A stretch of DNA of 64,000 nucleotides from positions 1 through 64,000 of the forward strand of contig JBGAON010000002.1 of assembly GCA_044221725.1 (NCBI GenBank), given 5' to 3'. Below, in pieces: positions 27,120-50,126 of the stretch; the first letter of the stretch is position 1, and the number at the start of each line of letters is the position of its first letter. Made by a program: the position numbers and the translations under genes. This DNA is from Elusimicrobiota bacterium. Its GTDB lineage: Bacteria > Elusimicrobiota > Elusimicrobia > F11. Under the pieces are notes generated by a model, which was not told where the DNA came from, did not search any database, and saw nothing but the letters and a program-made list of their open reading frames with translations.

Positions 27120-27138
27120 CCGATCAGTAAACCGATCA
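27120..27138 (+). repeat. 19-bp motif copy (CCGATCAGTAAACCGATCA), putative integrase arm site
   Basis: 18/19 identical to 44675-44693. Confidence 0.8.
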
Positions 27139-27167
27139 CTTCATTGAGCGGTCGAACGAATATCAAA

Positions 27168-30131
27168 ATGAATAGCCACAAACGCGTGCAGAAAAAATTA
27201 ACCAAAGAGGAACTGAATAGTCGGTTATCTGACCGGCAGGTTACTTTGTTGGGTGATTACGAGAATTATCACGCCAAAACCCTCTTTCAATGTGCAAATA
27301 GCCATACTTGGATGGCCGCACCAGCCAATGTGCTTAATGGCACTGGATGTCCCACATGTTCCGGCAATCGTCCTCTAACCCAAGAAATTGCAAACGAAAG
27401 GTTAAAAGCCAGAGGAATCCGGATGTTGGATCCGTATGTCCATCAGAAATCGAAGGCACGGTTTCAGTGCAAGGAGGGGCATATTTGGGAAACATCATCA
27501 GGGACCGTCTTGTATGAAGGAGGCTGTCCGAAATGTTCAAAGGTGTTAGCCGCAAATAAAAAGCGATTAAAACCGGAAGCAATCCAGAAAAGGCTTGAGG
27601 GTCGGGGCATAGTATTGGTGAGCCAATATTCGCACGCCAACGTCAAAGCTAACTTCAAATGTGGACATGGTCATATTTGGGAAGCAACTCCGGCCAGCGT
27701 AATGAGCGGTAATGGCTGCCCGCAATGTTCTGGACGGGTTCCACTAACAAAAGAAATCATTCAATCCCGAATTGAAAAGCGGGGCATAACCATACTCAAT
27801 TTTTCCGGATCTAAATCCAGATCGCGCTTTGGTTGCGGAGAGGGCCACGAATGGGAAACGAGTCCTTCTAATGTAGTTAATGGGTCCGGATGTCCACGCT
27901 GCGCTAAACAGGCTCAAGAAAACCGCTATAGAAAAATCATCGTTGATGGGCGTGAATTTAAATCAATCCAAAGCGCGGCTCGACATTATGGGCGTTCGAG
28001 CAACAATATTGCTTACCGGCTTTCTAAAGGCTGGACACCTGAACAAGCGGTTGGACTTCACCCACGCCCAAGTTTCGCTGGAAACACCGCTGGCATTCCA
28101 GTAAGGGTGCAGGGCCTTGAATTCTCGAACCTCAAACAAGCGGCAAAACATTTCGGGCGTAGCTACACCTACCTCGTTGGCAGATTAAAGGATGGAAAAA
28201 CGATTGAACAGTCGCTCGGTCTGATCAAGCGAACAGATTCACTTCAATCTGAATATCCTGAATTAGCCAAGCAGTGGCACCCTGAAAAAAACCTTCCGCT
28301 AACTGCCGCGTCAGTAACACCTCATTCAGGAATAAAAGCGTGGTGGTATTGCCTGAATGGTCATGATTGGCAGGCTTCAATCAATAGTCGCGCTCGGGGT
28401 GGACACGGTTGCCCATTTTGCGCAGGTCAAAGACCGACAAAAGAAAGAAATTTCGCTGTCAAATTTCCCGAATCGGTCAAGCAATGGGACTTCGAGAAAA
28501 ATCAGAATCTTCGGCCAGAGGAATGTTCAACTCGCTCTAAGAATGACGTTTGGTGGAAATGTGAGCGAGGCCATTCGTGGCATGCGACGATTCAAAATCG
28601 CACAAGAAAGTGGAAGAGCTCATGTCCTTATTGCATGAATCTAAGATTAGGCTTCGACAATAGTCTTGCTCAAGTGCGTCCAGACATAGCAAAAGAATGG
28701 CACCCAACTAAAAATGCTCCCTTAACTCCAAACGATGTTGTGGCAGGTGGAAGCAAACCAAGATGGTGGATTTGTAAGCATGGTCACGAATGGCAAGCAC
28801 CGATAAATCGTCGCGTTATCAACGGATCCGGTTGTTCAAAGTGTTCGTTACAGACTTCAAGAATTGAAATTGCCGTTTATTCAGAACTAACTGCATTGTT
28901 CGAGGACGTAGTTTGGCGGGAAAAAATTGCCGGATATGAGTGTGATATCTATTTGAAAACTCATGACATCGGAATCGAAATTGACGGGGTCTATTGGCAT
29001 AGTCGGAAGCCAGAGTTAGAGGTAAAAAAATCAAAGTTGTTTGAATCAGAAGGATTGCTGTTGTTCCGTCTAAGAGAGAAAGGACTACAAGCCTTAAGTG
29101 AGCGAGATGTGGCTTTTAAATTTTCTGACAAAGAGTTTCACGTCATCTCTCGATTGGTGAATAGCATCTTGAAGCACGCAAATCTTACGGAAGCCCAACG
29201 AGTAAGGCTTCAAAACTATATATCGGGTCCAGGGCTAATTAATGAGAAGTTTTATCACAAGCTAATCTCAAACCTCCCTGCGCCGCCACCGGACCAATCT
29301 TTGGCTGCGAAGAATCCAGCGATTGCAGCGCAGTGGGCTTTCGATCTCAATGCACCTTTGTTGCCCGAGCATTTTCGATGTGGAGCAAACAAATATGTTT
29401 TTTGGCGATGCTCTGACGGACACACTTGGAAAGCATCGATCAACAATCGGGCCTTACAAGGAACAAAATGTCCTGGTTGTCCTGGCAAGTCCACGGTGAC
29501 GGTAAACGAAGACAACAACTTTGCTTCCAAATATCCCCATCTTGTGCGCGAATGGCATCAAGAAAAAAATGGTGACGTCCTTCCTGGAAAAATTAGGCAT
29601 AAATCGAACCAGATATTTTGGTGGTTATGTAGCAAAGGCCATGAATGGAAATCCTCTCCGAGCAGCCGTGCGAGTGGTCACGGGTGCCCATATTGTTACG
29701 GCCGTTTTGCCTCAAAGGAAAATAATCTGGCATATAAATATCCGGAGTTATTAAAGGAATGGGACTATGAAAAGAACATCGGTCTGAATCCTTCTGAATT
29801 TACTCCACATGTAAATAAGAAGGTGTGGTGGAACTGCAAAAATGGTCACAATTACCAGGCAACAATATCCAATCGAACGAGAAATAAGTCGGGATGTCCA
29901 AAATGCGCACAACACGCAAATCGAAAACATTCAATTGACGATTTTGAGAAACTCGCCAATAACCGTGGTGGAAAATGTTTGAGTACTGAATTTACGAGCA
30001 GTAGAGACAAAATGAAATTTTCCTGCAAAGAAGGACATGTATGGGAAACGCGAGCGGATAGCGTTTTGTATACAGATAAATGGTGTCCAGAGTGTGCAAG
30101 AAAAACGCGCAGAACCATTTCAATTTCCTGA
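27168..30131 (+). CDS. Large zinc-ribbon repeat protein (treble-clef/DUF4379-like repeats, NUMOD1-like HTHs, central PD-(D/E)XK/Vsr-like nuclease domain)
   Basis: 11 C-x3-H...C-x2-C units; ECDIYLKTHDIGIEIDGVYWH motif; start taken at ATG 27168. Confidence 0.85.
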   Translation: MNSHKRVQKKLTKEELNSRLSDRQVTLLGDYENYHAKTLFQCANSHTWMAAPANVLNGTGCPTCSGNRPLTQEIANERLKARGIRMLDPYVHQKSKARFQCKEGHIWETSSGTVLYEGGCPKCSKVLAANKKRLKPEAIQKRLEGRGIVLVSQYSHANVKANFKCGHGHIWEATPASVMSGNGCPQCSGRVPLTKEIIQSRIEKRGITILNFSGSKSRSRFGCGEGHEWETSPSNVVNGSGCPRCAKQAQENRYRKIIVDGREFKSIQSAARHYGRSSNNIAYRLSKGWTPEQAVGLHPRPSFAGNTAGIPVRVQGLEFSNLKQAAKHFGRSYTYLVGRLKDGKTIEQSLGLIKRTDSLQSEYPELAKQWHPEKNLPLTAASVTPHSGIKAWWYCLNGHDWQASINSRARGGHGCPFCAGQRPTKERNFAVKFPESVKQWDFEKNQNLRPEECSTRSKNDVWWKCERGHSWHATIQNRTRKWKSSCPYCMNLRLGFDNSLAQVRPDIAKEWHPTKNAPLTPNDVVAGGSKPRWWICKHGHEWQAPINRRVINGSGCSKCSLQTSRIEIAVYSELTALFEDVVWREKIAGYECDIYLKTHDIGIEIDGVYWHSRKPELEVKKSKLFESEGLLLFRLREKGLQALSERDVAFKFSDKEFHVISRLVNSILKHANLTEAQRVRLQNYISGPGLINEKFYHKLISNLPAPPPDQSLAAKNPAIAAQWAFDLNAPLLPEHFRCGANKYVFWRCSDGHTWKASINNRALQGTKCPGCPGKSTVTVNEDNNFASKYPHLVREWHQEKNGDVLPGKIRHKSNQIFWWLCSKGHEWKSSPSSRASGHGCPYCYGRFASKENNLAYKYPELLKEWDYEKNIGLNPSEFTPHVNKKVWWNCKNGHNYQATISNRTRNKSGCPKCAQHANRKHSIDDFEKLANNRGGKCLSTEFTSSRDKMKFSCKEGHVWETRADSVLYTDKWCPECARKTRRTISIS

Positions 30132-30278
30132 AAAATTCCTCCGATTGATTTGTGGCCCATTTGGTTCTTTTATCGCCCTTTGGTTCCAATCAGAGCAGCA
30201 AGAAATATCCATAGATCAGCCAAGCTTTGATCAGGTAAATTATTGTCATGGATACGTTTTTAAACGCAGAGAAAACGC

Positions 30279-30653
30279 GTGCCAGGTAGGCCGTTTGAGG
30301 CTGGAAATACAGCAGCAGTTGGGCATGGCAGGCCGAAAGGATCGAGCCGTGTGCTGACTTGCAAAGAATTTGCGGAGCGGGAAGGGTATCAGCGATTAAT
30401 TGGTCTCGCTCGCGGGGAAAGTTATCGGGTGACAAGAAACGGTCAGGATGTCGACTTGTATCCGGACCTCGATTTGATTTTTGAGTCCCTCAAACTTCTT
30501 ATGGCCTATGGAATTGGTAAGCCCGCTCAACTTCTAAATGTCACCCACAATGTTGAATCACTTGCCGATTGGGTCGCCGTGCATTTTGCATCTCAAAAAA
30601 ATCTCGCCGGAACTCCCGCTGAAAAAAAGCTTATTGACATTGATACTAAGTAG
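30279..30653 (+). CDS. DUF5681-like protein, possible terminase small subunit
   Basis: N-terminal GRPFEAGN...GRPKG motif typical of this phage family. Confidence 0.55.
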   Translation: MPGRPFEAGNTAAVGHGRPKGSSRVLTCKEFAEREGYQRLIGLARGESYRVTRNGQDVDLYPDLDLIFESLKLLMAYGIGKPAQLLNVTHNVESLADWVAVHFASQKNLAGTPAEKKLIDIDTK

Positions 30654-30669
30654 TTGATACCATGCTCGC
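30634..30669 (+). promoter_or_regulatory. Sigma70 promoter for a leaderless HTH-regulator mRNA, overlapped by 14-bp-period direct repeats
   Basis: TTGACA-18 nt-TACCAT with TG extension; ATG 6 nt after the -10; TTGATAC twice. Confidence 0.75.
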
Positions 30670-31176
30670 ATGAAAGCTGAAATCGATCATGGCCATCGCC
30701 GTTTCTTGAATATCCGAGAAGTCGCGCAAGAAACCGGATTGTCGATTCCCACCATCAAGAGGTATTCCTCTCTCAAGCTTATAACTGCACCCACTCGTGA
30801 ATCATACGGGCGAGAGGGATTCAAAGGACTTTGGTCTGTTGATGTGGTTGAAGAGATTTCAAGAATTAGCGAATTGAAAAAAGAAGGGCTTCAGATAGAG
30901 GAAATACGGGAAAAGATGAAATCCGAACCAAAGTATCGAACTTTGGTTGAGTCCTCAAATGGATATTACGATGACACCAAAATGCTTTCACTGATACGTG
31001 CAGTCCAAAACATCATGCCATCAGATGTAAATCAGGCGATCGTTTTCCAGGCGACTAAAAAAGTTGCCAAGCAATTTCTTGCCCGTGTTGAGAGGCTTAG
31101 TCGCAAAGCGCAAAAGGTATATCCCGAGTATCCAAAGGGGTACGCGGCGGGCAAGAGCAAGAAGATAAAAGCGTAA
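30670..31176 (+). CDS. MerR-like HTH regulator
   Basis: LNIREVAQETGLSIPTIKRY...LKKEGLQIEEIRE. Confidence 0.8.
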   Translation: MKAEIDHGHRRFLNIREVAQETGLSIPTIKRYSSLKLITAPTRESYGREGFKGLWSVDVVEEISRISELKKEGLQIEEIREKMKSEPKYRTLVESSNGYYDDTKMLSLIRAVQNIMPSDVNQAIVFQATKKVAKQFLARVERLSRKAQKVYPEYPKGYAAGKSKKIKA

Positions 31177-31191
31177 AATTTTTTTGTCTTT

Positions 31192-31216
31192 CATGGTATT
31201 AAACACATGGTATTAA
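31192..31216 (-). promoter_or_regulatory. Direct-repeat operator upstream of the replication operon
   Basis: CATGGTATTAA twice at 14-bp period; reverse complement matches 30640-30664 at 19/25. Confidence 0.7.
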
Positions 31217-31244
31217 TAATTAACAGAGAACGAGGTAGCTAACG

Positions 31245-32105
31245 GTGGCGAGATCCCGAGCCTTACATCAGAGATTTTTCTCAAGTGAACACAATCAACG
31301 CCTGAACGATCGGCAGCGCCTCCTATTTTTGGGCCTGATCTCTACCGCCAACGACCAAGGCAAGCAGCGGGGAAATCCTGCCATCGTTAGGGCGACCATA
31401 TTTCCCTACGATGAAATCCCATTAATGGATATCGAAAACGATTTGCGTGTTTTAGATAAGGAGGGCTTGATTGCCTGCTACCAAATCGGTGACTCCCACT
31501 ACATAAAGATTTGCAAATGGGACTCCTATCAGAGAGTCGAACATCCTGGAAAGGATGATTGCCCCAACCCGAGTATTCAGGCTACACCATCCTCCAATAT
31601 CATCGATGGAAGAGTGCATTCAGGCAGTTTTCCCGAGGATTTCGGGAAACCTTCACGAAACTCTCATGAAACCCTCATGAAGAATGAGAGAGGCGCTCTT
31701 GTAGAAGAGAAGTTAAGAGAAGAGAAGGAAGTTAGCGCAGCGACCATCGTCACCGAAGGCGCAGCGCAATCCAACGGTAGCCCTGAAAACCTAAGCCCAC
31801 CAGAAAATCCCACGAGTTCTCCAGAAATCGCTAACGCGATCTTTACATTCCCAACGAATGGATCCGTCAAGTCTTGGGACTTAACTCTCGAACGAATCAT
31901 TACCATGCGTGATCTATATCCTGGAGTTGATGTCGATCTTGAAACCAGAAAGGCCCTTCAATGGACAATCGACAATCCGAGTCGACGCAAAACAGTGAAA
32001 GGTATGCCGCGTTTTATTTCTTCTTGGCTCGAAAGAGCTCAAAACAAGTCAGCAGGGACCAAATCGAGAGCTGACAAAGGATCCGCGACATGGCCGACGG
32101 AATAA
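31245..32105 (+). CDS. Phage-type replication initiator
   Basis: N-terminal MAR.R...FF/RLLFLGL...DDQG-like wHTH region, low-complexity linker, C-terminal YPGVDV...W...NP.RRKT..GM.RFI..WL; directly upstream of a helicase. Confidence 0.75.
   Translation: MARSRALHQRFFSSEHNQRLNDRQRLLFLGLISTANDQGKQRGNPAIVRATIFPYDEIPLMDIENDLRVLDKEGLIACYQIGDSHYIKICKWDSYQRVEHPGKDDCPNPSIQATPSSNIIDGRVHSGSFPEDFGKPSRNSHETLMKNERGALVEEKLREEKEVSAATIVTEGAAQSNGSPENLSPPENPTSSPEIANAIFTFPTNGSVKSWDLTLERIITMRDLYPGVDVDLETRKALQWTIDNPSRRKTVKGMPRFISSWLERAQNKSAGTKSRADKGSATWPTE
31629..31681 (+). repeat. Iteron-like repeats inside the initiator gene (putative origin)
   Basis: GAAACCTTCAC/GAAACTCTCAT/GAAACCCTCAT 11-bp tandem plus inverted repeat TTTCCCGA..TCGGGAAA. 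Confidence 0.6.
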
Positions 32106-32926
32106 ACGAGCAAGTGAGTGAGTTGTTAAAAGCGGAAGAACGTCTTGCGCAATACGCAGGGCCGGATCGGGTCATCCATCACACTGAATTTCCACGCGAG
32201 GAACAGCAGAAGGAACATTTTTACTCTGGTATCGGTGAGCTCGATGCCGAGGTTGAGGGATTTCAACGAGGTGAGCTGGTCACGATTTCTGGTTACACGG
32301 GCCAAGGCAAAACAACATTGGCCGATACACTCGCGAAAAGGTTCATGGACACTGGAAACCCCGTCTTGTTCTTTTCATTTGAGGTTCAAATGACGGCCTT
32401 TCTTGAGAAGTATCGCGAGTCGAAAGCGTCACCTCTTTACATTCCTCTTACACTCGAAACAATGAATTTACCCTGGATCCGTGATCGCGTGCTTGAAGCG
32501 AAAGCAAAACATGGTTGCGAGGTTGTCGTAATTGATCACCTGCATTTCATAGTTGATATGGCCTTCAGGCAAAACATGTCTCTCAATATCGGTGCCTGTA
32601 TGCGTTATCTCAAAAAAGAAGTGGCCTCGATGTTAAATGTCCTTGTCATTCTTCTGGCTCATACGGCACAACCTACTGATAACGGTGAAGAATTACACCT
32701 TGGAAAGATTCGTGATTCTTCCTTCATCGCGCAGGAGAGCGATATGGTTTTAATGATCATGCGATTAGCCGATCGCCCACCTGGAAACCAAAAGCTGATT
32801 GCTCCTTCATTTTCCCAAAATCGATCTCGTTTAATGATTGAGAAAGCACGAAGAACCGGTGCATTCAAAAAGCGAATAACACTTGTTAAGCGCGGGCATT
32901 GGTTTGAAGAGGAGCTGCCTACATGA
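32090..32926 (+). CDS. DnaB-like SF4 helicase (C-terminal ATPase domain only)
   Basis: SGYTGQGKT, FFSFE, VIDHLH, IRDSSFIAQESD, KAR. Confidence 0.88.
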   Translation: MADGINEQVSELLKAEERLAQYAGPDRVIHHTEFPREEQQKEHFYSGIGELDAEVEGFQRGELVTISGYTGQGKTTLADTLAKRFMDTGNPVLFFSFEVQMTAFLEKYRESKASPLYIPLTLETMNLPWIRDRVLEAKAKHGCEVVVIDHLHFIVDMAFRQNMSLNIGACMRYLKKEVASMLNVLVILLAHTAQPTDNGEELHLGKIRDSSFIAQESDMVLMIMRLADRPPGNQKLIAPSFSQNRSRLMIEKARRTGAFKKRITLVKRGHWFEEELPT

Positions 32927-33567
32927 TCGATGGACGTGATTTCGTCATTTCTCATCTGTACGAAACGTTTCATAACCGTCCTGGTTGGCTGGCGGAAGTG
33001 ATCAAGCTCGACATACTTGATAAGGGTGAATTGGAAGATTTGGAGCGGCTTGCCGAATACCGAGACTCGGTAGAAATTGAAATAGAAAAGTGGTGTCGAA
33101 GTCTTCCAGCTTTTTACCAGATTGATGCGTTGGATTCTGATGACGAAAAATTATCTGAAGTTATGAGACGCCTTGCCGAGATTGAAGCGGCATTAGCCGA
33201 ATCTTGGCAACGGAACGATCACTATATTTTCAGGCAGGGAATTAGAGCCCGATCGAACTACAAACAATTGTGTGCTTATCGAGAAAAGCTACTACGGCGT
33301 GTTCATCATAAAGAGCCAGTGGCATTTCGATTGTCCGAAAGTCGATTGGAGCAGGCCCGTCAGGTCCCATTAGAAAAGCTGGTTCAGCCAAACGCCAGAG
33401 GGTATGTGAATTGTCTTTGGCACGAGGACGAGAATCCATCGATGTTGGTCAAAAACGGATATGCATGGTGTTTTGCTTGCTGCACTTGGGCTGATTCGAT
33501 CAAGTGGATACAACAAGAAAGAGGTCTCTCATTTGGAGAGGCCGTTTCGTGGTTAACTGCTATATGA
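32923..33567 (+). CDS. CHC2 zinc-finger (primase Zn-binding domain) protein
   Basis: CLWHEDENPS...WCFAC...DSI.W......SFGEAV. Confidence 0.8.
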   Translation: MIDGRDFVISHLYETFHNRPGWLAEVIKLDILDKGELEDLERLAEYRDSVEIEIEKWCRSLPAFYQIDALDSDDEKLSEVMRRLAEIEAALAESWQRNDHYIFRQGIRARSNYKQLCAYREKLLRRVHHKEPVAFRLSESRLEQARQVPLEKLVQPNARGYVNCLWHEDENPSMLVKNGYAWCFACCTWADSIKWIQQERGLSFGEAVSWLTAI

Positions 33568-34133
33568 CCGATATGTCTCTGCCATTATTTCAGAAGTATT
33601 CAACCGTAGTTGCCGACCCCCCGTGGCAATTTCGGCGGCAACCGCGTTCAGTCAGTCCTGGATATAAGCTCCTGACTTTGGACGAAATAAAAAGAATCCC
33701 ACTAAAAGATATTTCCAAAGAAAACTCTCATCTGTATCTATGGATTCCAAATGCGTTTATCAAAGAAGGTGTGGAAGTAATGCAGGCATGGGGATTTGAA
33801 TATAAGACCGTAATCACTTGGGCAAAACACCAAATTGGGGTCGGTAATCATTTCAGAAATTCCACCGAGCAAATTCTCTTTGGAGTGCGTGGGCGTCTTC
33901 CATTGTTGCGCCGTGATTTGCGGACCTGGTTCTTAGCTGACCGCCGCCAACACAGTCGCAAGCCCGACGAATTTTATCGACTGGTGGAATCAGCCTCGCC
34001 GGCGCCGCGGATCGATATTTTTTCGCGTGAAAAGCGAGAGGGATGGGACCAATGGGGAGACCAAATTAATTTTTTCAATCAACAAATACAGGAGGCAGAC
34101 CATGTCGGAACAAAAACCACTACTAACAGCTAA
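33564..34133 (+). CDS. MT-A70 family adenine methyltransferase
   Basis: ADPPW, LYLW, AWGFEY, W.K, FRNSTE, HSRKP, IFSRE. Confidence 0.92.
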   Translation: MTDMSLPLFQKYSTVVADPPWQFRRQPRSVSPGYKLLTLDEIKRIPLKDISKENSHLYLWIPNAFIKEGVEVMQAWGFEYKTVITWAKHQIGVGNHFRNSTEQILFGVRGRLPLLRRDLRTWFLADRRQHSRKPDEFYRLVESASPAPRIDIFSREKREGWDQWGDQINFFNQQIQEADHVGTKTTTNS

Positions 34134-34296
34134 GCAAGCAGCAGTATTTTTGGGTGTATCGATTTTCACTCTGTACGGATGGACCAGCGCCGGGAAAATT
34201 CCTCACAGGAAAGTTGGGAGCCTCCTGCGGTTCGACGAAAACGAGCTCGTTCAGTGGACGAAGTTGCACGGCCAACTGGCAGTAAAAATAGCTTGA
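34102..34296 (+). CDS. Excisionase-family HTH protein
   Basis: LLTAKQAAVFLGVS..TLY.W...GKIP..KVG..LRF; SD GGAGG. Confidence 0.88.
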   Translation: MSEQKPLLTAKQAAVFLGVSIFTLYGWTSAGKIPHRKVGSLLRFDENELVQWTKLHGQLAVKIA

Positions 34297-34325
34297 TCGA
34301 TCGAGATGATCTGATCAATGATCGG
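34295..34325 (-). repeat. Inverted copy of the 19-bp motif / GATC cluster upstream of the integrase
   Basis: Reverse complement of 34307-34325 is CCGATCATTGATCAGATCA (16/19); five GATC within 34295-34323. Confidence 0.7.
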
Positions 34326-34372: not shown

Positions 34373-35485
34373 ATGGCTATTAGGTTGATCGATTCGCAAA
34401 AGAAAAAATATCGGATTTCTTTCTGGTATCGAAAACGGCATTACGCCAAGGTGGTCTGTGGTAATAGAGGAATCGCCGCAGACTTGGAGGCTCGAATGAG
34501 AACCGCGCTTGCAGAAAATCGTTACTTTCCTGAACGGAAAATTAGAGAGATGTCATTCAAGGATGTTGCGAAAAAGTTTTTGGCTGAATGCCGAACATTT
34601 GAGCGGTCCAAACATAAAGTGCGAATTTATATAGCAGGGTGTCTAAAAGAGTTTGGAGTCATGAAAATGAATGAAATCCGCTCGCAAGATGTCGCGAGCT
34701 TTCGAGATGAACTTGGTAAGCGAATGAGTCCCGTTTCTGTAAACCACTATCACCGTGTTCTGAGAAGGTTATTCAACTGGGCAAAAGAAGAACATTTGTT
34801 CTTAGGTGAGAATCCTGCGTCCGGTAAAAGGGTCCCGTTGGCAAATGAGCGTCCGTTTTGGCGATCTGAATTTTTATCGGAAGAAGAGCTGCAGAAAATT
34901 CTTGAAGTGGCAGATGAAAAAATAAAACCAATTATCCTTTGCGCGGCATTGACGGGGATGCGTTTAAATGAAATCAAGCGAATGAAAGGACAGGATGTTG
35001 ATTTAGATCGGTGCGTGATTCGGATTCCAGAGAGTAAAAATGGGGAATCTGGATGGGTTCCAATCCCTGATACGCTTTATTCGGCCATTGCTCCCGTTAT
35101 CAAAAATAGCTCTGCGGCAGAAAACCAAGTATTCAACTTCACAAATTTCGAGCGAATGTGGAAACGAGCTCGGTTGAATGCAGGAATTAAGATGCGATTC
35201 CATACCCTTAGGCACACTTACGGCTCGCATTTAATGATGAAAACGGGAAATCAGGGGGCAGTGCAATCACTGCTCCGACACAAATCCCCTGCTATGACGG
35301 CCCGCTATGCACACTTGGCACCAAGCTTTTTGAGGCAAGCAGCGCTTACTCTCGACAAAATGTTTCCGTCAAAAGGTCCTGCGTTGAACAACGGGGCAGC
35401 TGAGGCCGCAACCATTTCAACCGAGGAGTTATCTGATTCAGGAGGGCACTTAATTTTAGACACAAAAGAAAATAAAAATGAGTAA
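34373..35485 (+). CDS. Tyrosine recombinase/integrase
   Basis: TGMRLNE (R), SKNG (K), HTLRH, LRH, TARYAH (Y); N-terminal arm-binding-like region. Confidence 0.96.
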   Translation: MAIRLIDSQKKKYRISFWYRKRHYAKVVCGNRGIAADLEARMRTALAENRYFPERKIREMSFKDVAKKFLAECRTFERSKHKVRIYIAGCLKEFGVMKMNEIRSQDVASFRDELGKRMSPVSVNHYHRVLRRLFNWAKEEHLFLGENPASGKRVPLANERPFWRSEFLSEEELQKILEVADEKIKPIILCAALTGMRLNEIKRMKGQDVDLDRCVIRIPESKNGESGWVPIPDTLYSAIAPVIKNSSAAENQVFNFTNFERMWKRARLNAGIKMRFHTLRHTYGSHLMMKTGNQGAVQSLLRHKSPAMTARYAHLAPSFLRQAALTLDKMFPSKGPALNNGAAEAATISTEELSDSGGHLILDTKENKNE

Positions 35486-35496
35486 CGGAGGAAATT

Positions 35497-36036: not shown

Positions 36037-36040
36037 TTCT

Positions 36041-37495: not shown

Positions 37496-37711
37496 ACGGG
37501 TAGCTCTCGAAGCTACCACGCAAACAAGTAGAGTCTTCCAGAAACAATTGGAATTTAGCGACTTTGAGAATTTAACAGAATCCTGTTACAAGGATGTGTT
37601 CGTTTTTCTGATCAACTCTCGAACATTGATAACCTTGGGTAATTCATACTTTCAATTCTAAAATCCAGGATAACTCTTGATTGTGATGTGGTTTCCTGCA
37701 AAAATAACCCA

Positions 37712-37969: not shown

Positions 37970-38060
37970 TCGACCGTCACGGCGGTCCATCCCAACAATA
38001 GTTTGAAATTCAGCCCATCGATATTTGTCGATGGAGAAGTGTTTTATCTTAGGAGTTTCC

Positions 38061-39326: not shown

Positions 39327-39336
39327 GGAGACCCAA

Positions 39337-42300: not shown

Positions 42301-42471
42301 CTTGTCGCCAGCCTTGGGTTTGTGCCGATGGCTTTGAATACCGGCATCGGTGCCGAAGTTCAACGCCCGTTGGCAACGGTTGTAATTGGCGGACTTGTAA
42401 CATCAACTTTGTTGACACTCATTCTAGTCCCTGCGCTTTATAAATTGTTTGGAGGAAAACAGCATGAATAA
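39337..42471 (+). CDS. czcA: Heavy-metal RND efflux pump, CzcA/CusA family
   Basis: DAVPDIT, MSLGAVDFGLLVDGAVVMIEN (CzcA-type DFG..DG..VEN), RLRPVAMT, EVQRPLATVVIGG. Confidence 0.9.
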   Translation: MKTRILEWTLKNRIGVTLFFALGAGIGLYALTTLPVDAVPDITPVQVMVNTKTKALDPEQAEKTVSFPIETEMSGIAHVKEVRSLSKYGLSQVVINFEDGTNIYWARQQVSERLQSVQGELPEGLSPELAPITTGLGEVVMYVVQAKPGTILAEKPEKERLLYLRTIQDFVIAPTLKRSVKNVAEVDSTGGYKKEIHIEIFPKKLETHGLSIEQVVERLEGLGENFGGGYIQPGGKQVIVRTSGRLHDLKSIGTLSVKLDVSGRPIPLSSVAEIREDYSQRMGGATYDGKETVLGTVLMLSGANSRQVAIDTEQALKDVALPADVETKLLYSRSYLVNATLKTVAKNLAEGAALVIVILLLILGNFRAAVFVSLAIPLSMLFGVIGMKWLGISASLMSLGAVDFGLLVDGAVVMIENALRRLEEHQGPLDHEKRFKLILDSASEVIKPVGLGLLIIMLVYVPILSLEGIEGKLYHPMAVTVLMALGASLLVAVFLMPVLAYFFLRPPKGGGKEEKFVYRSLKNLYQPVLDQSLARPWLALVPSIILIVVALFIFQRLGGDFMPPLDEGDMVINLTRESDIGVDASLEMQGKSDAVIKQFSEVEHVFSRIGTPESATDPMGVHLADTFVILKKNHSLWKKNSDGKVRSKKELYDAIKDALEKEITGQDVNENQPIEMRFSEIMEGSRADVTLRIYGKDLPVLLGLLEKSISILKDVPGTEAVEMDALTALRKSPVLSAEPNYTAIARYGLDVHHVNRLLEAAMGGKEVGSFYEHQWRFPIVLRVEEESRENIETIKSLPVGLPDGGTIPLHKVANFERTEEVTTIAHDYSQRYAAVAVFLSGRDIQSYVKEARKVIGDKLDLPEGYSISWGGQFKNLERARKRLALIVPLVLIGILVILWRAFGSFSQAMLVYTAVPLAMTGGVFALAMRGIPLSVSASVGFIALMGIAILNSMVLVSFFNQLRLKGMTAHQSAREGALTRLRPVAMTALVASLGFVPMALNTGIGAEVQRPLATVVIGGLVTSTLLTLILVPALYKLFGGKQHE

Positions 42472-42889
42472 TTGGATTCTTTATGCAGTAGGAGCCGCCG
42501 TTCTTTATGGGCTCCATCAAGTCTTCACAAAATTAGCATCACCCCACATCGGCGATGGTGTTGGAGGTTTTATTGTGGAGGCGACGGCGGCACTTACTAT
42601 TGCCGTTTATTTAATTGGGCTAAAGCTTGCTGGGAAGTGGGATCAGGGAATTTCAACACAAGGAATTGCATATTCGGCGTTGACCGGCCTTTGCGTTGGG
42701 GTCGGGACCATTTTCTTTTTCCTGCTTTTTCAAAAGGGCGGGCCGTTGTCCGCAGTTCCCATGGTTCTGGCCGGAGGAGCAGCGATCATGGCCATTATCG
42801 GTATTGTCTTTTTTAAAGAACCAGTTAGCATGTTTCGGGTTGCCGGAATTGGTTTTGCCGTGGTTGGTTTGGTTCTTTTACGTTATTAA
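42464..42889 (+). CDS. EamA/DMT family small transporter
   Basis: 5 TM helices, FFKEP motif. Confidence 0.8.
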   Translation: MNNWILYAVGAAVLYGLHQVFTKLASPHIGDGVGGFIVEATAALTIAVYLIGLKLAGKWDQGISTQGIAYSALTGLCVGVGTIFFFLLFQKGGPLSAVPMVLAGGAAIMAIIGIVFFKEPVSMFRVAGIGFAVVGLVLLRY

Positions 42890-42894
42890 ATCCG

Positions 42895-43125
42895 ATGGAT
42901 AATCTCACTCTTTTTGGCCTATTCGCGGTTTCATCCATGCTTATATGTTATGCGCTTGAGAAGCGCAGTCCATGGTTTATCCTGGGATTCGCCGTTGCCT
43001 GTGCGTTGGGGTCGATTTATGGATTTCTTCAGGGGGCCTGGCCGTTTGGAGTCGTAGAAGCGATATGGTCGGTCGTTGCAATGAAACGATGGTGGTCGAC
43101 TAAGAGGACTGGTACTGATCAGTAA
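42895..43125 (+). CDS. Small 3-TM membrane protein
   Basis: YALE, YGFLQGAWPFGVVEAIW. Confidence 0.8.
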   Translation: MDNLTLFGLFAVSSMLICYALEKRSPWFILGFAVACALGSIYGFLQGAWPFGVVEAIWSVVAMKRWWSTKRTGTDQ

Positions 43126-43235
43126 TCCGATTATTGTCGAAATACGGTACTGAAATTCCCATCGAAAACCTCTCGAATTTCGCTACAACCAATGCGTGGG
43201 GTAAATCAGCTCGGTAGCACTCAAAGTCACTAAGC
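43115..43235 (+). pseudogene. Relic att site: 19-bp motif plus decayed 5' half of tRNA-fMet
   Basis: Motif 17/19 at 43115; 43195-43235 matches tRNA nt 1-41 at 26/41 ungapped, 80 bp after the motif, the same offset as 44675 to 44755. Confidence 0.7.
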
Positions 43236-43250: not shown

Positions 43251-43709
43251 CTAGCAGCATCCGCTGCCGGACTTAATCGGTATCGCACCAGCCTTAGGTT
43301 GCCCACACGCCTCTTTGGCCAAGCAATCAGTATGTTTGTACCCAAGTTGCAGAACGACTTCTGCCTCCGTCACCTTGGCTCCAGTTACCGGATATTGGGA
43401 AATAACACCGCGCTCATACTCTACTTCGAGCGGAAGCTGATCCACTGGGATGATGCTCTCGGATAGCTTAAGGATTTTGCCGAGCTTGGCAGAGGAGAGT
43501 CTGTGATCGACGTCGGAACCGAGCCAAGTTTGAAGAACGCATGCCGTAGTCGATCGAGCCTTTCCGCCGCAATCGATAAACGTTTTCGTCACTTGCCCAA
43601 CTTCGGTTACATGGAATGATTCGGGGACACTTGTGCCATCGTTGAGTTGAATCCGTAACGCTCGATCTGGAATTTCTGAAAGGAGTATCTTCAATTCATT
43701 TAATTGCAT
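43251..43709 (-). CDS. DUF6428-like arsenic-operon protein
   Basis: FHVTEVG...FIDCGG, LEVEY, HTDCLA, C-terminal GSGCC. Confidence 0.8.
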   Translation of the reverse strand: MQLNELKILLSEIPDRALRIQLNDGTSVPESFHVTEVGQVTKTFIDCGGKARSTTACVLQTWLGSDVDHRLSSAKLGKILKLSESIIPVDQLPLEVEYERGVISQYPVTGAKVTEAEVVLQLGYKHTDCLAKEACGQPKAGAIPIKSGSGCC

Positions 43710-43711
43710 GG

Positions 43712-44170
43712 TTATTTGCCTCCCACCGGAACTCCGCTACTGATCATCTTGATGAATTCGATGACCTTCGCCTCAATTTCCTTGCGCACTCCGATTGTGC
43801 GGGTCAATTTTTCCTCGTGAGTTCCTTGGAAGCTCGATGGGTCCGCAAAACTCCAATGGATGCGTTTCGTGACCCCTGGGAATATAGGGCATCGCTCGGC
43901 GCTTGTTTCATCGCATACCGTGATGACATAGTGAAGCATCCTGCCTTCCTTAAACAAATCAAACACCCTTTTGGTTGGGTTCTTAGAAATATCGATCCCT
44001 ATATCGGCCATGGCCTCGATAGCGAGAGGATTTAGCTTACCTGGCTCAAGGCCAGCGCTTTCCACTTCAAAATCATCACCGCCAAATTTCTTAAGTAGCG
44101 CCTCTGCCATTTGGCTTCGCGCAGAGTTGTGAATACAGACAAACAGAACCTTCGTTTTCTTTTTTTGCAT
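43712..44170 (-). CDS. arsC: Thioredoxin-dependent arsenate reductase (LMWPTP fold)
   Basis: CIHNSARSQMAE, ITVCD....E.CP.FP, HWSF.DP; SD AGGAGG. Confidence 0.92.
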   Translation of the reverse strand: MQKKKTKVLFVCIHNSARSQMAEALLKKFGGDDFEVESAGLEPGKLNPLAIEAMADIGIDISKNPTKRVFDLFKEGRMLHYVITVCDETSAERCPIFPGVTKRIHWSFADPSSFQGTHEEKLTRTIGVRKEIEAKVIEFIKMISSGVPVGGK

Positions 44171-44204
44171 AGCTCCTCCTAAATTAACCGCCATCGACAC
44201 CGTC

Positions 44205-44224
44205 ATATTCGCTTACACAGATAT
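44205..44224. promoter_or_regulatory. Putative second ArsR operator upstream of arsC
   Basis: ATATTCGCTTACACAGATAT, 15/20 identical to 44589-44608. Confidence 0.55.
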
Positions 44225-44242
44225 ACTCATCAAAAAAAGGGG

Positions 44243-44590
44243 TTAGCAGCATCCGAACTTCCGGCAATCCAAACCTTTTAAAATCTTTTTGTCCTTCGCG
44301 AAGATCGGCGCATCTTCCAAACAGTCGCCGATGCAGGCCAACAGACCCTTATGAAAGGTTCCAGTGGGTTTGGCCAATGAGTAGTAAATCCATTGGCCTT
44401 CCCGCGTGGTTTCAACCAGTCCGTGCCGGCGTAGATAGGCCAGGTGACGTGAAATTTTAGGCTGGGGTGCCTTAATGACGGACATGATGTCGCAGACACA
44501 AAGCTGGCCGTTTGAGAGTAGACTCAAAATACGGAGGCGAGTCTCATCAGCGAAAGCTTTTAGAAGGTTGTTTGGGGAATCGTTGCTCAT
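44243..44590 (-). CDS. arsR: ArsR/SmtB repressor
   Basis: ADETRLRIL, LCVCD, QPKISRHL, REGQWIYYSL, C-terminal CC. Confidence 0.93.
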   Translation of the reverse strand: MSNDSPNNLLKAFADETRLRILSLLSNGQLCVCDIMSVIKAPQPKISRHLAYLRRHGLVETTREGQWIYYSLAKPTGTFHKGLLACIGDCLEDAPIFAKDKKILKGLDCRKFGCC

Positions 44591-44608: not shown

Positions 44609-44674
44609 ACAAATCCAACATTAAAGAGGCAAGATCGGTTATTTGGCTACCATTAGCTGCTTTTCGAGGCATTC

Positions 44675-44693
44675 CCGATCAGTAATCCGATCA
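44675..44693 (+). repeat. 19-bp motif reference copy CCGATCAGTAATCCGATCA
   Basis: Two CCGATCA heptamers at 12-bp period, 80 bp before the second tRNA. Confidence 0.8.
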
Positions 44694-44754
44694 GTCGCAA
44701 AATCACCTTCGAAAAACCTCCTCGAAAGTGACTCAAAATAAATTACAATCAGTC

Positions 44755-44831
<77 letters not shown>

Positions 44832-44841
44832 TTTCCAAAAG

Positions 44842-45102
44842 GGTCCTGCCCGAGCCTGGCGGTAACAGAAAGTACCGATCACATGGGTTACACTATTTTC
44901 GCAGCGAAGGGATACGGTAGCGGCTCGAACCTTCTGCTCGTTTCATCAAAGTAGCCCAGATCATACTCCATAAAGCTGACCAACCAGATTCTGTCCCGAA
45001 CTTCGGGTGCGGACGTTGTGTATTGAACTCTTCGATATGTTCTCTCGAAACCTCGAAGGAGTTTGCCGTTGACGTTGTATCCAACCCGACTCTTATCCGA
45101 CA
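44842..45102 (-). mobile_element. Internally deleted IS481-family remnant
   Basis: Peptide EVRDRIWLVSFMEYDLGYFD...PLPYPFAAK resembles IS481 transposase C-termini; end repeats TGTAACCCATGTG../TGTTACC; the other end begins TGTCGGATAAG. Confidence 0.7.
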
Positions 45103-45125
45103 TAAGAGCTGGTATAATTAGCCCA

Positions 45126-45713
45126 ATGGAGAAAATAAAAGATTCCTATTCACGATCACCCAAAAAAGAGAAAGCGGCTTCGCCTCTCTCCAAAGTTGTG
45201 GTCGATAACCATAATCGGTTCCTTTCTTATCTCGCCAGCCGCGTTGAAAGCCGAGAAGCTGCAGAAGAAATCCTTCAGGCCGCTTACCTAAAAGGGCTCG
45301 AACGAGAGGGAACGTTAAAAGATACCGAAAAGATCACAGCTTGGTTTTTCCGTGTTCTTAAGAACGCTTTGACCGATTCCTATCGCCACAAAGCGGCAGA
45401 GAAGCGCGCCATAGAAAGGTACGGGTCCGGAACGGAACGAAATCAAATCCAAAGAGACCACGATCTAGAGAAAAATGTTTGCAAATGTATAAACCGAGTC
45501 ATGAAAACATTGAAACCGGAATACGCAGATGTACTTCAGAAAGCCGAAGTAGAAGATAAAAGCATAAAAGACCTCGCCTTCAAATCAGGAACATCACCCA
45601 CCAATATCAGTGTCCGATTACATCGTGCTCGTGCCAGCCTTAAAGAAAAGGTCCTTGAGACTTGCGGCGCCTGCGTGGACCACGGCTGCCTCAACTGCAC
45701 CTGTAAACACTAG
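45126..45713 (+). CDS. ECF sigma factor with CxC linker and Cys-rich C-terminus (CorE-like)
   Basis: AEEILQ, AWFFRVLKNALTDSYR, VCKC, RLHRAR, CGACVDHGCLNCTC; TGGTATAAT 7 nt before the ATG. Confidence 0.85.
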   Translation: MEKIKDSYSRSPKKEKAASPLSKVVVDNHNRFLSYLASRVESREAAEEILQAAYLKGLEREGTLKDTEKITAWFFRVLKNALTDSYRHKAAEKRAIERYGSGTERNQIQRDHDLEKNVCKCINRVMKTLKPEYADVLQKAEVEDKSIKDLAFKSGTSPTNISVRLHRARASLKEKVLETCGACVDHGCLNCTCKH

Positions 45714-45781
45714 CTGTAAGGTTTTTGAATCTCATACGTCTCTATTGGTGAAAGGCCAAAAAGGGCCGCCAAGGAGAATAT

Positions 45782-47998
45782 ATGAACCACAGTGAAACAA
45801 TCGAAAGACACGTAGTAAAAGAGGATCCCCGGTACGGTTCGTGCTGCGGATCACATCACCATAAGGAGAGCTCTGAATTGTTCGGAAACAAAGGAGCAAT
45901 CTATACCTGCCCAATGCATCCGGAGGTCCGCCAGAACGGTCCTGGTTCATGCCCAAAATGCGGCATGGCCCTGGAACCGCTGGACGGGACGACCTCAACC
46001 GCCGATGAAAGCTCCAATTCAGAATACCGAAGCATGTTGCACCGCTTCTGGGCAAGCCTCGTGCTGACGGTCCCTGTTATTGTGACAGCGATGGCTGAGA
46101 TGATTCCGCGCTTTGAGCATGTCGCGTCTTCAACGGGTGTTTCCTGGTTACAAATGGCGCTGACAACACCCGTGGTCTTGTGGTGCGGCTTGCCGTTTTT
46201 TCAACGAGGTTGGAGTTCGATTAAAAACCGAAGCCTAAACATGTTCACACTAATCGCCTTGGGTATTTCCACAGCTTTCGGGTTTAGCGTTGCGGCTATA
46301 TTTTTTCCAAACGTGTTTCCAGAATCCCTCCATGTGCACGGACGAGTTCCAGTTTATTTTGAGGCGGCAGCAGTCATCACGACACTTGTTCTTCTTGGAC
46401 AAGTCCTCGAGCTTCGTGCGCGAAGCAATACAAGCAGTGCGATTAAGGCTTTGCTGCAACTTGCACCCACGACAGCCCGCGTGGTGCGGAATGATAAAGA
46501 AGAGGATATTGATCTAGCCCATATTCAAGTTGGAGACGTATTGCGTGTTCGGCCCGGTGAGAAAGTGCCGGCGGACGGAAAAATCTCTGACGGCCAAAGC
46601 TTCGTCGATGAATCGATGTTGACCGGCGAATCAATACCAGTTGAAAAGAAATCTGGTGACAAAATCACTGGTGGAACGATTAATCAGACTGGCTCTTTTC
46701 TGATGCGAGCGGAGCGCGTTGGGAATGAAACTCTTCTGGCACAAATCGTGAAAATGGTTTCAGAAGCGCAGAGAACAAAAGCTCCTATTCAGCATCTAGC
46801 GGATGTTGTTTCTGGTTATTTTGTACCGATCGTGATCTTGGTGGCCGTCATCACCGCAGTGGTATGGGCGATGTTTGGGCCCGAACCCCGACTTGCTTAT
46901 GCATTAGTAAATGCGATTGCTGTTGTGATTATCGCGTGCCCATGTGCGTTGGGTCTCGCAACTCCGATTTCAATTATGGTCGGCACCGGCCGCGGTGCAC
47001 AGGCCGGCATCCTGATCAAGAACGCAGAGGCGTTGGAAAGACTTGAGAAGGTGAATACGCTCGTTGTCGATAAAACGGGAACGTTAACGGAAGGAAAACC
47101 AAGACTCGTATCTATTGAACCAAATTCTCCGTTCAGTGAGTCGGAGCTGTTGAAACTAACAGCCAGTGTTGAGCAAGGGAGCGAACATCCGTTGGCCCGC
47201 GCCATCGTTCAGGCGGCCAGAGAACGGACCGTGACACTGGCACCAGTATCGGGATTCCATTCTGTGACTGGAAAGGGCGTCATGGGCGAAGTGGAGAGCC
47301 GAAAAGTTCACATCGGAAGCGGAATCCTGTCTCACGTAGCCAATCGGAGCAATGCACAAAAGATTGCATCACTACGAAAGCAGGGACAAACAGTTATCGG
47401 TGTCGCGGTCGATGGAAAATTTGCTGGCCTTATCGGTGTCGCCGACAAGATCAAAGAATCCACTTTCGAGGCATTAGACACATTACGGAAATCGGATATT
47501 CGCATCATGATGCTAACGGGTGATAACCGCGCAACAGCGGAAGCCGTCGCTCACCAAATCGGTATCAGTGAAATTGAAGCCGAAGTGCTTCCGCAAGACA
47601 AAGCGAGTGTCATCAAGAAGCTGCAATCTCAAGGCCGAGTGGTGGCGATGGCTGGTGATGGTGTTAACGACGCTCCGGCGTTGGCTCAGGCTGATGTTGG
47701 AATTGCGATGGGTTCGGGAACTGACGTCGCTATTCAAAGCGCAGATGTCACGTTGGTTAAGGGTGATTTGCGTGGCATTGCCCGTGCACGGAAATTAAGC
47801 GAAGCGACAATGAGGAGCATAAGACAGAACTTATTCTTCGCTTTTATCTACAACGTTTTAGGTGTTCCTGTGGCGGCGGGTGTGCTTTATCCGTTTACGG
47901 GTCTGTTGCTCAGCCCGATGATAGCAGCCGCCGCTATGACTTTTAGCTCTGTCTCTGTAATCGCAAACGCACTGCGGCTGCGCAAAATTTCACTTTAA
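45782..47998 (+). CDS. copA: Cu(I)-translocating P1B-type ATPase
   Basis: YTCPMHP domain, TGES, CPC, DKTGT, SEHP, GDGVND, YN, MTFSS. Confidence 0.93.
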
Positions 47999-48010
47999 GG
48001 AAGAACAATC

Positions 48011-49309
48011 ATGAAAAAATTGTTTGCTCAAGTTATCGCTTTAGGTCTCACAAGCTCAATCGTCTATGGACAAGACCATAGCGAACATCACCAGCACCAA
48101 GGTCATGAGATGGGAAGCATATCCATGAGCGGCATGTACGGGTCTTATCCAATGACGAGAGAGGCATCCGGCACCGCCTGGGTTCCGGATTCAAGTCCTC
48201 ATGAAGGTTTACACTACATGGCTGGTCCATGGATGTTGATGCTTCATGGATTTGCAACTCAGGTTTACGACCACCAAGGAGGACCACGAGGCGATAACAA
48301 GAATTTCTTAGAGAGCATGTTTATGATGATGGCACAGCGGGAACTTGGTCCCGGCACGCTTGGATTTCGCACCATGCTTTCATTGGACCCAGCCATGGGA
48401 GAGAATGGCTATCCGTTGCTCTTTCAGACGGGTGAAACGGCTGATGGCGAGCATCATCTTATCGACCGACAGCATCCGCATGATCTGTTTATGGAACTCG
48501 CCCTTTCGTACAATTTGAAGTTAAGCGATACGAATTCAGTTTTCGTTTACGGCGGGTTGCCCGGTGAACCCGCATTGGGTCCAGCAACCTTTATGCACCG
48601 CTTCTCTGGGCTAGACAACCCAGAAGCACCAATCACGCATCATTGGTTGGATTCGACTCACATTACCTTCGGCGTGTTGACGCTGGGTTACGTGTATGAC
48701 AAAGCAAAATTAGAGGTCTCAGGTTTTAAGGGACGGGAACCAGATGAGAACCGGTGGAACATAGAATCGCCACGGATCGACTCTTATTCATACCGCTTCA
48801 CCTGGAATCCCTATCGCGATTGGTCAGGGCAAGTGAGCTACGGAAACATACATAGCCCGGAACAACTGGAGCCAGACGTTGATACGGAGAGGGTCACCGC
48901 ATCGATCGCCTATAACCGGTCCTTCGGAAAAAATAATTGGCAGACCACTGCGGCGTGGGGTCAGAACAAGAATGAAGACCATCATTTCGAAGCGCATTCC
49001 GAACGACTTGATGCCTATTTGGTGGAGTCCGCGCTGTCAGTCAACCGAAAACACACGTTTTTCGGCCGAGCCGAGACGGCGGAGAAGAACGAACTCTTTA
49101 ACGAAGAAGAGCCGCGTGCTGGAAATGTTTACGACGTAGGAAAGCTAAGCCTGGGATATATCTACGATTTTCTGAACCTTAGCTTTGGCGAGATCGGCGT
49201 CGGTGGCCTTGGAAGTGTTTACAGCGTGCCATCCGCAATTCGAGACGTGTACGGCGACTCGCCCACCTCTTACATGTTGTTTGTACGAGCGAAATTGGGA
49301 GCTGGATAA
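48011..49309 (+). CDS. Outer-membrane beta-barrel with His/Met-rich N-terminus (copper-associated)
   Basis: Signal peptide, HSEHHQHQGHEM, ASGTAW.P, DRQHPHDLFMEL, HHWLDSTHI. Confidence 0.75.
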   Translation: MKKLFAQVIALGLTSSIVYGQDHSEHHQHQGHEMGSISMSGMYGSYPMTREASGTAWVPDSSPHEGLHYMAGPWMLMLHGFATQVYDHQGGPRGDNKNFLESMFMMMAQRELGPGTLGFRTMLSLDPAMGENGYPLLFQTGETADGEHHLIDRQHPHDLFMELALSYNLKLSDTNSVFVYGGLPGEPALGPATFMHRFSGLDNPEAPITHHWLDSTHITFGVLTLGYVYDKAKLEVSGFKGREPDENRWNIESPRIDSYSYRFTWNPYRDWSGQVSYGNIHSPEQLEPDVDTERVTASIAYNRSFGKNNWQTTAAWGQNKNEDHHFEAHSERLDAYLVESALSVNRKHTFFGRAETAEKNELFNEEEPRAGNVYDVGKLSLGYIYDFLNLSFGEIGVGGLGSVYSVPSAIRDVYGDSPTSYMLFVRAKLGAG

Positions 49310-49380
49310 ATTATCAATATGATCTCGGTCATAGTTGTGGTTGGCGAGTAGTGGTAACTATAGAGTAAAGGGAGAAATCC

Positions 49381-49707
49381 ATGGAAAGGAAACTAATCGG
49401 ATTCGCGATCCTCTTCGGCGCAGTAATGTATGCGATTCCTGTTCAAGCCTGTCCGTCGTCGGAATGTTTCGAGCAGGCAAGCAAGCCGAGTTGCTGCGAT
49501 GCCGTTCGCGATTCCAATTCCGCTACCATTCCCGGCCTACTGCCGGACACCTTATCCCTAAGAAATATCGCCCCTCCGGTTCAGGTCGATTTTATCAAGC
49601 CGCCACTAATCACTACTCGCGTGCGTCGCGACTTCGATTTACTTAATTCTTTTTTTTTGGAACGCCAGCACTATACGAGTAGGAGTCCGCCCACAACTCC
49701 TGCATGA
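49381..49707 (+). CDS. Small secreted Cys protein with C-terminal RSPP; putative arrest leader
   Basis: Signal peptide ending VQA, C..C..CC, ...TSRSPPTTPA; SD GGGAG. Confidence 0.6.
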   Translation: MERKLIGFAILFGAVMYAIPVQACPSSECFEQASKPSCCDAVRDSNSATIPGLLPDTLSLRNIAPPVQVDFIKPPLITTRVRRDFDLLNSFFLERQHYTSRSPPTTPA

Positions 49708-49770
49708 GTACTGTGTCACTTGCAGAAAATGAAATGGATCGAAACCCACGACTTATAAAGGAGAATTGAT

Positions 49771-50028
49771 ATGAAAAAGTTTATGCTTGTCACTCTTGGG
49801 TCCGCAATGTTGATCGCGGCTCCCGTGTTTGCGGACACCATGACTCATAGTAACGGCATGTGCAAAAAGCACTGCAACCTCATGGACTTGGAGGAAAAGG
49901 TTAAGACGTTAAAGTCCCACGCCTCGACCGCGGATAAAATCGCCACAAAAGAGCATCTCCAAAAGGACATTGAGGCGTATGAAAAGAAGCTACAAGAGAT
50001 AAAGAAAGAGCTGGACGCAACGAAATAA
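49771..50028 (+). CDS. Small periplasmic helical protein with a MxHxxxMCxxHC putative metal site
   Basis: SD AAGGAG, signal peptide ending VFA, coiled coil. Confidence 0.75.
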   Translation: MKKFMLVTLGSAMLIAAPVFADTMTHSNGMCKKHCNLMDLEEKVKTLKSHASTADKIATKEHLQKDIEAYEKKLQEIKKELDATK

Positions 50029-50041
50029 GAGTATTGACTAA

Positions 50042-50078
50042 GCCGGGCATTGGGGGGCATCCCTGGTGCCCGGTTTTT
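50042..50078 (+). terminator. Intrinsic terminator
   Basis: gccgggca...tgcccggt hairpin followed by a T-run. Confidence 0.75.
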
Positions 50079-50107
50079 GTTGCCCTTCGTTCACGTTAGG
50101 TATGAAG

Positions 50108-50126
50108 CCGATTAATAATCCGATCA
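50108..50126 (+). repeat. 19-bp motif copy CCGATTAATAATCCGATCA at the end of the copper module
   Basis: 17/19 identical to 44675-44693. Confidence 0.7.

Follow-up and report, generated by a model that had tools for sequence, protein, structure and literature searches.

A 19-bp double heptamer as a probable integrase arm-type site flanking tRNA-fMet in an Elusimicrobiota genomic island

Why does a genomic island at an initiator tRNA gene carry the same 19-bp double heptamer at several of its boundaries, and which step of integration might the motif serve? We addressed this question in a 64,000-nt stretch of an Elusimicrobiota bacterium (the window; positions 1 to 64,000 of contig JBGAON010000002.1, assembly GCA_044221725.1; G000 in our genome set), for which an initial annotation had read the motif copies as arm sites of the island's tyrosine integrase and the locus as a tandem array of cargo cassettes. 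From sequence comparison we consider it quite probable that the 19-mer is an arm-type site flanking the 5′ part of tRNA-fMet, that the integrase recombines within the tRNA D-loop (nt 14-22), and that units stack at this site and decay.

Copies of the motif in the island

The motif is a heptamer pair with a 12-bp period, and its five copies lie where they had been placed, with the mismatches that had been claimed: 27120 (one mismatch), 34307-34325 on the minus strand (three), 43115 (two), 44675 (none) and 50108 (two). By chance 0.01 copies would be expected in the window, and none of 100 shuffles reached five. The whole-genome scan that the initial annotation had named as a check returned six matches with up to three mismatches in 2.82 Mb, five of them inside the island; with up to two mismatches there were four, all in the island. 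The claim that the motif marks every module boundary stood in part, since it bounds several units and is missing at the boundary between the terminase large subunit gene (TerL, ending at 37495) and the efflux genes; the window scan also found no copy between the zinc-finger gene and the replication module. A half-site at 44875 was considered and set aside as chance, as it lies inside a transposase remnant and its homolog in G002 reads CCGGTCA.

The five copies are not equivalent in role. The ends of the island are formed by an 81-bp duplication (26880-26960 and 44754-44834) containing a complete tRNA-Met(CAT), which we take from its sequence to be of the initiator type. At the left junction (attL, 26880..26960, plus strand) the complete tRNA-fMet occupies 26881-26957, with a likely core (tRNA nt 13-24) at 26893-26904, and the motif at 27120..27138 (plus strand) follows 239 bp past tRNA nt 1, a spacing close to that in G001, G002 and G007 (-228 to -247). 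The right junction (attR, 44675..44834, plus strand) consists of a motif at 44675-44693, a -10-like TACAAT at 44744-44749 and a complete tRNA-fMet at 44755-44831 (core 44767-44778). By their positions, 27120 is a P′ site (-239, core upstream) and 44675 a P site (+80, core downstream), flanking the tRNA-fMet duplication as had been proposed.

A further right end had been predicted at the end of the efflux module, and a worn one is indeed found at 43115..43230 (plus strand), comprising a P-class motif, a -10-like TACAAC and a degenerate tRNA nt 1-24 starting at 43195. Its core (43207-43218) matches at 10 of 12 positions in the same +80 register as 44675, a score equalled in 8 of 2000 shuffles, and the 100 bp downstream of the motif are homologous to those of 44675 (p=0.002) and to the P site of G007 (z=7.0). 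The core carries a CT-to-TC swap, that is, two changes in the likely overlap, which makes nested excision at 43115 doubtful, and no P′ site follows it. The copy at 50108 did not bear out its assignment as a right end: its best core reaches 7/12, as do 1339 of 2000 shuffles, and its flanks match left-end arms (78% over 58 nt with the P′ arms of G001 and G002, z=6.2 and 4.3), including about 35 bp downstream of the motif. Judged by these matches, 50108 is best read as the orphan left arm of an older unit (50087..50158, plus strand; motif 50108-50126, with no core downstream). A transposase remnant begins right after the right tRNA, so the copper module may have entered between this tRNA and the 50108 arm by transposition.

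The inverted copy at 34307..34325 lies in a TGATC-rich spacer between xis and int and is conserved in seven related elements; this TGATC-rich variant stands directly behind xis in 8 of 8 motif-bearing elements examined and is missing from G030 and L250. It is likely a regulatory (autoregulatory) site and not a boundary. KplE1, for which the available part of PMC2951348 describes integrase autoregulation, offers a loose parallel, its regulation using a promoter that overlaps attL.

These assignments bear on the initial proposal of a live array whose three interchangeable right ends (43.2, 44.8 and 50.2 kb) release nested circles. It draws support from 43115, a true attR-like junction, and from the nested excision described for tandems of cis-mobilizable elements (CIMEs) and integrative and mobilizable elements in the portion of PMC5704250 consulted. 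With 50108 P′-class and coreless, and two changes in the likely overlap at 43115, we regard it as very unlikely in full; what survives is an array with one worn internal right end. Contigs from seven runs, which the tRNA duplication breaks and which could not have ruled an excision joint out, gave no interpretable one. Read depth in one run that is possibly the source was 24.1 inside the island against 30.5 and 25.7 outside it.

Register of the motif in related genomes

The exact double heptamer occurs in 40 of 401 genomes of the phylum, whereas a reversed control gave two matches. There are at least 64 exact matches in all, and among the 63 listed, 25 lie within about 300 bp of a tRNA or its 5′ core. 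All 25 belong to the 41 matches with an A/T-rich spacer, against 0 of the 22 others, a split chosen post hoc with the data already seen. A register screen covered 71 exact and near-exact sites and found the core in register at 37, the repeats standing at a fixed distance on both sides of the att core. The P class comprises 24 sites with the 12-mer CAGCCTGGTAGC (tRNA nt 13-24) downstream of the motif and tRNA nt 1 at +80 to +84 or +130 to +138, apart from two outliers at +50 and +71. In the 13 sites of the P′ class the 12-mer stands upstream of the motif: where a short 5′ fragment precedes, the register is -138/-141, and where the tRNA is complete or almost complete it is -228 to -247. By position, therefore, the motif behaves as an att-arm motif would, in line with the proposed arm sites.

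A complete unit in G025 reads, in order, 5′ fragment, P′, MT-A70, xis, int, cargo, P, a TATAAT-like box and the full tRNA. Many units lack the recombinase: among eight tested (1.5-8.3 kb where measured) an integrase match was absent in seven and a remnant was left in one, and the single-contig genome G032, which carries integrase-less units, held no close integrase (best E 5e-21). Tandem arrays were also seen in relatives, as the array model supposed. In relatives the motif bounds cassettes in fixed register to tRNA-fMet or its 5′ fragment. In G004 the czc, cop and ars homologs cluster without it. In an all-species motif scan, tRNA-fMet sequence stood beside the motif at 3 of the 119 loci listed (L090, L097 and L114), all titled Elusimicrobia; the remaining loci look like chance (80 of the 119 had full flanks). 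Short, near-identical pieces of the region also turned up in contigs of four other studies, three on wastewater or sludge and one unlabelled.

Several variants of these junctions were seen alongside. Unlike other P sites, those at G013:C9:24178 and G013:C18:29825 have the motif about 140 bp upstream of the tRNA and in the opposite orientation to it. Sites of a P-plus-core class without the tRNA 5′ end (L253:3935, L254:11123, L255:2607, G025:C2:202745 and 218561), often close behind int, could represent insertions outside tRNA genes or else internal right ends. Several att cores and cassette tRNA copies are interrupted, in the D-loop or the T-loop, by short REP-like hairpins (G032:C1:161580-161680 and 634000-634030, G044:C51:16437-16540, L114:5126-5210, G001:C35:527-606), which may lock units in place. 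Finally, tRNA-fMet is split by about 200-260 nt near the anticodon at G003:C113:4380-4656, G037:C11:41635-41968 and L114:10085-10423, possibly by an intron.

Recognition of the motif and position of the crossover

The island's tyrosine integrase (34373..35485, plus strand, 370 aa) likely recognizes the 19-mer as an arm-type site through its N-terminal domain. This domain is modelled as three strands plus a helix (pLDDT 80-86), an arm-binding-like fold, and its language-model neighbours (ESM 0.95-0.96) include Tn916 Integrase_DNA, Arm-DNA-bind_2 and Arm-DNA-bind_4 (PF02920, PF12167 and PF14657). Aligned as a whole, from residue 1, the model matches lambda Int residues 14-334 (Z 14.9, rmsd 15.1, 286 aligned); a weak match to an AP2 domain (Z 5.4) covers residues 1-54. 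The integrase belongs to a clade of 11 members, split from more distant integrases with support 100/99. The clade is small: two 50%-clusters match at E <1e-130. The single-integrase query returned no related loci in genome or viral contigs, and an alignment query returned only two distant viral matches.

Exchange of the N-domain within this clade would fit recognition of the motif by the integrase. Three members beside the same tRNA have different N-domain strands and different period-12 repeats (CGTACC, GGTACCT and CGATACC) at -77 to -92. The window integrase groups with these three in the tree (support 96/90), and its core-binding domain is 49-55% identical to theirs versus 34-41% to those of five distant integrases whose elements carry the CCGATCA motif; its N-domain is 51-60% identical to the five distant ones versus 30-42% to the three (tree and identity counts exclude L005). 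One clade member sits at tRNA-Gly and the CCGATCA motif is also found at tRNA-Thr elements, so arm motif and target vary independently. Elsewhere in the phylum, integrases of a broad set (L325, L326, L339, L345, L334 and others) are found immediately upstream of a variety of tRNAs and co-oriented with them, several having a period-12 double repeat of their own.

Two results weaken this assignment: no arm-binding family was detected by Pfam HMM in the three N-domains scanned, and the HTH_17 excisionase (Xis; gene at 34102..34296, plus strand) co-varies with the motif too (50-81% versus 40-46%). Such a split in step with the motif would be expected if the motif were bound by Xis, or by Xis and Int in common, with unchanged att geometry, and the TGATC-rich variant adjoining xis in every motif-bearing element, but missing in G030 and L250, fits as well. 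We nevertheless hold Xis to be an improbable binder, because each unit carries the motif at its two ends and integrase-less cassettes have it too, because the arm-binding-like domain of the integrase needs a site, and because paired period-12 repeats are typical of arm-type sites.

Where the integrase cuts cannot be placed from the 81-bp repeat of the window. The left tRNA copy has a G7-U67 pair, the right copy G7-C67, and relatives G007, G002 and G004 A7-U67, which suggests that the left copy is a hybrid formed by exchange somewhere between nt 8 and 66. Displaced 5′ fragments in relatives are more telling. All six tRNA-fMet fragments stop matching the host at nt 31-33, and none of them includes the 7-nt anticodon loop (nt 33-39) that marks islands cut at this loop, whereas the 5′ fragments of related elements at tRNA-Ala, -Arg, -Ser and -Thr contain the whole loop in 6 of 6 cases (five from a survey of 20 regions, 15 of which gave no 5′ fragment, and one from separate inspection); for G030, G389, L250 and L251 the sequence examined contained no left-end fragment. 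Seven non-tRNA junctions keep the 12-mer and show, at positions on which they were not selected, G32 (7/7) and C33 (6/7), to which G4 (6/7) and C5 (5/7) correspond symmetrically about position 18.5 in the D-loop. Moreover, the junction at G032 159803 joins non-tRNA nt 1-12 to tRNA nt 13-31, and that at G002 235095 begins at tRNA nt 15. Because the anticodon loop is left out of the fMet fragments but present in those at other tRNAs, and because the D-loop 12-mer persists at non-tRNA junctions, we lean towards a crossover in the D-loop (nt 14-22), as far as sequence can place it, a position in the 5′ part of the tRNA that the initial annotation had not noted. An overlap there would account for the fragment ends if the right arm extended to nt 33. 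The pair 159803/161496 of G032 had also been taken as secondary-site proof of the crossover and was withdrawn, because 161496 is a P-core-P′ junction broken by a hairpin, as are G044 16355 and L114 5126.

Other observations count against a D-loop crossover or against a close tie between motif and core. The strict core is absent near 16 of the 41 A/T-spacer matches. The seven non-tRNA junctions were picked for having the 12-mer and could go back to a common ancestor. Around tRNA-Thr elements in G013 the motif occurs with a fragment that contains the anticodon loop, and it therefore does not define a D-loop class. Fragment nt 25-31 match the family-specific sequence of their own host, a result equally expected if the cut lay at the 5′ edge of the anticodon loop. 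The repeats would then still be arm sites, with a cut at nt 32/33 and a very short or mismatched overlap, as has been proposed for Fionnbharth Int and is known for IntDOT; the fragments do end at nt 31-33 and match their own host through there, G32 and C33 are conserved in non-tRNA junctions, and a 3-bp overlap has been proposed, in the part of PMC10865867 available to us. We judge this placement unlikely. The G364 and G404 fragments depart from the host sequence at nt 32, tRNA sequence begins at nt 13 and nt 15 in the two junctions noted above, and the conserved block would reach 20 bp from the cut, which seems long for a core-type site.

With the crossover in the D-loop, attP of the circular element would consist of the P motif, a promoter, the tRNA 5′ end, the core, tRNA nt 22-33 and the P′ motif. 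Integration would leave the element upstream of the tRNA, to which it would provide promoter and 5′ end at attR. In the family of G000, G001, G002 and G007 the P′ side appears to carry the whole 3′ tRNA, so that a complete gene is possible at each of the two junctions. Units would stack as integration recurs at the same core, the older ones losing their integrase and some arms. In the window, 26881 would be the start of a satellite-like unit with efflux cargo that closes at the worn right end (43195), where the arsenic cassette follows, reaching 44755. Excision is predicted to release mainly 26881-44755 (17.9 kb) and to be inefficient at 43195, with no product ending at 50.1 kb. The left arm at 50108 would owe its distance of 5 kb from its tRNA to the copper module, perhaps brought in by an insertion sequence, and 34307 would probably act in autoregulation.

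Gene content, known systems and meaning

Genes and modules of the locus, where given here with coordinates, lie on the plus strand unless stated. A large DUF4379 zinc-finger/endonuclease-like ORF (27045..30131) is followed by a satellite-like module (30279..34133) encoding a DUF5681-like small protein, possibly TerS, a MerR HTH protein, a replication initiator, a DnaB-like helicase, a CHC2 zinc finger and an MT-A70 methyltransferase. Beyond xis and int lie TerL (36008..37495; phrog_2, E 7e-33) and the efflux cargo (37688..43125), comprising a small ORF, a TolC-like gene, a CusA/CzcA RND gene, EamA and a 76-aa membrane ORF whose stop codon falls within the 43115 motif; among the ORFs scanned, no membrane-fusion gene stands between or beside the TolC-like and CzcA genes (38025-42471). 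The arsenic cassette (ArsR, ArsC and DUF6428; 43251..44590, minus strand) measures 1,560 bp from core to core and has no integrase. The transposase C-terminal remnant (44842..45000, minus strand), presumably IS481-like, starts 8 bp past the right tRNA, and the copper module (45063..50030; an ECF sigma factor, a P1B ATPase and three further ORFs) occupies the interval up to the orphan P′ arm. Synteny with G002 resumes at mgtA, a pyrophosphatase gene and cstA. Elsewhere in this genome, a heavy-metal ATPase block adjoining another integrase (G000:C3:88682-98138) shares 82-94% protein identity with the cargo of the tRNA-fMet array of G002 (G002:C1:238900-248600). A 37-nt inverted repeat, 86% complementary, was seen in the window at 2735-2771 and 6656-6692, 3.9 kb apart.

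The island resembles lambda Int-type heterobivalent systems in its three-domain integrase with an arm-binding-like N-domain, in the xis beside int and in the paired direct repeats flanking a tRNA core. It differs in that each arm yielded only one double heptamer, the int gene of the window is internal to the unit and binding is predicted. Islander classes A and J, in the text of PMC4383910 available to us, likewise show an island upstream of a restored tRNA, a displaced 5′ fragment and tandem arrays; 5′-fragment islands make up 159 of 3919 there, and the subsites named are the anticodon loop, the T loop and the junction/3′ end. The review PMC8371274, as far as the accessible portion goes, also gives three bacterial tRNA regions, with one archaeal case extrapolated to D and T loops; PMC9897764 offered nothing further on subsites. 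Here, unlike in those classes, fragments end short of the anticodon loop and it is the D-loop 12-mer that is conserved as the core; both junctions can be complete tRNAs, which the Islander tDNA filter, from the same text of PMC4383910, appears to reject.

As in CIMEs and the tandem accretion of the ICESt1 type (sections of PMC5704250), integrase-less units keep their att sites, internal junctions are chimeric and nested excision is possible; att-ended units without an integrase do lie in tandem at one site, the window's ars unit of 1.56 kb among them. The mobile partner here is phage-satellite-like (TerL, replication genes) and not conjugative, and the target is the 5′ part of a tRNA. By gene content alone (int, xis, replication and packaging genes without a full virion set) the element resembles tycheposons and satellites like phage-inducible chromosomal islands (10.1101/2020.12.28.424599, seen in part), with which it shares a tRNA-targeting integrase, xis, replication genes, a terminase, cargo and stacking at one tRNA; it differs in phylum and in having TerL with no capsid gene among the ORFs scanned. 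It does not classify as an integron, the TIGR02249 score being 61.6 against a cutoff of 265 and the junctions being tRNA-derived cores, with attC models outside the scan.

Arm sites and CIME-type accretion at tRNA genes are already known; the D-loop subsite is likely new. The literature searched, supplements aside, where a report could lie, held no D-loop or D-arm crossover and no account of an Elusimicrobia island. With slightly less assurance than for the crossover itself, we favour the view that a small integrase clade of the Elusimicrobia gave up the anticodon loop as its crossover point in favour of the D-loop of the initiator tRNA, which would be a fourth subsite, restoring the gene with a promoter and 5′ end of its own, and that the arm motif and 12-bp core serve a phylum-wide pool of stackable, integrase-less cassettes. 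A D-loop crossover, if true, would add a subsite to the three listed in the consulted parts of PMC4383910 and PMC8371274. Island finders could then misplace or miss such elements, because fragments of 31-33 nt or whole-gene duplicates are left behind, and the element would set the promoter of an essential tRNA. The sister integrases with swapped N-domains and swapped heptamers form a compact natural series for the arm-recognition code, and the cargo shows a route by which metal-resistance genes build up in an uncultured lineage from wastewater-type samples.

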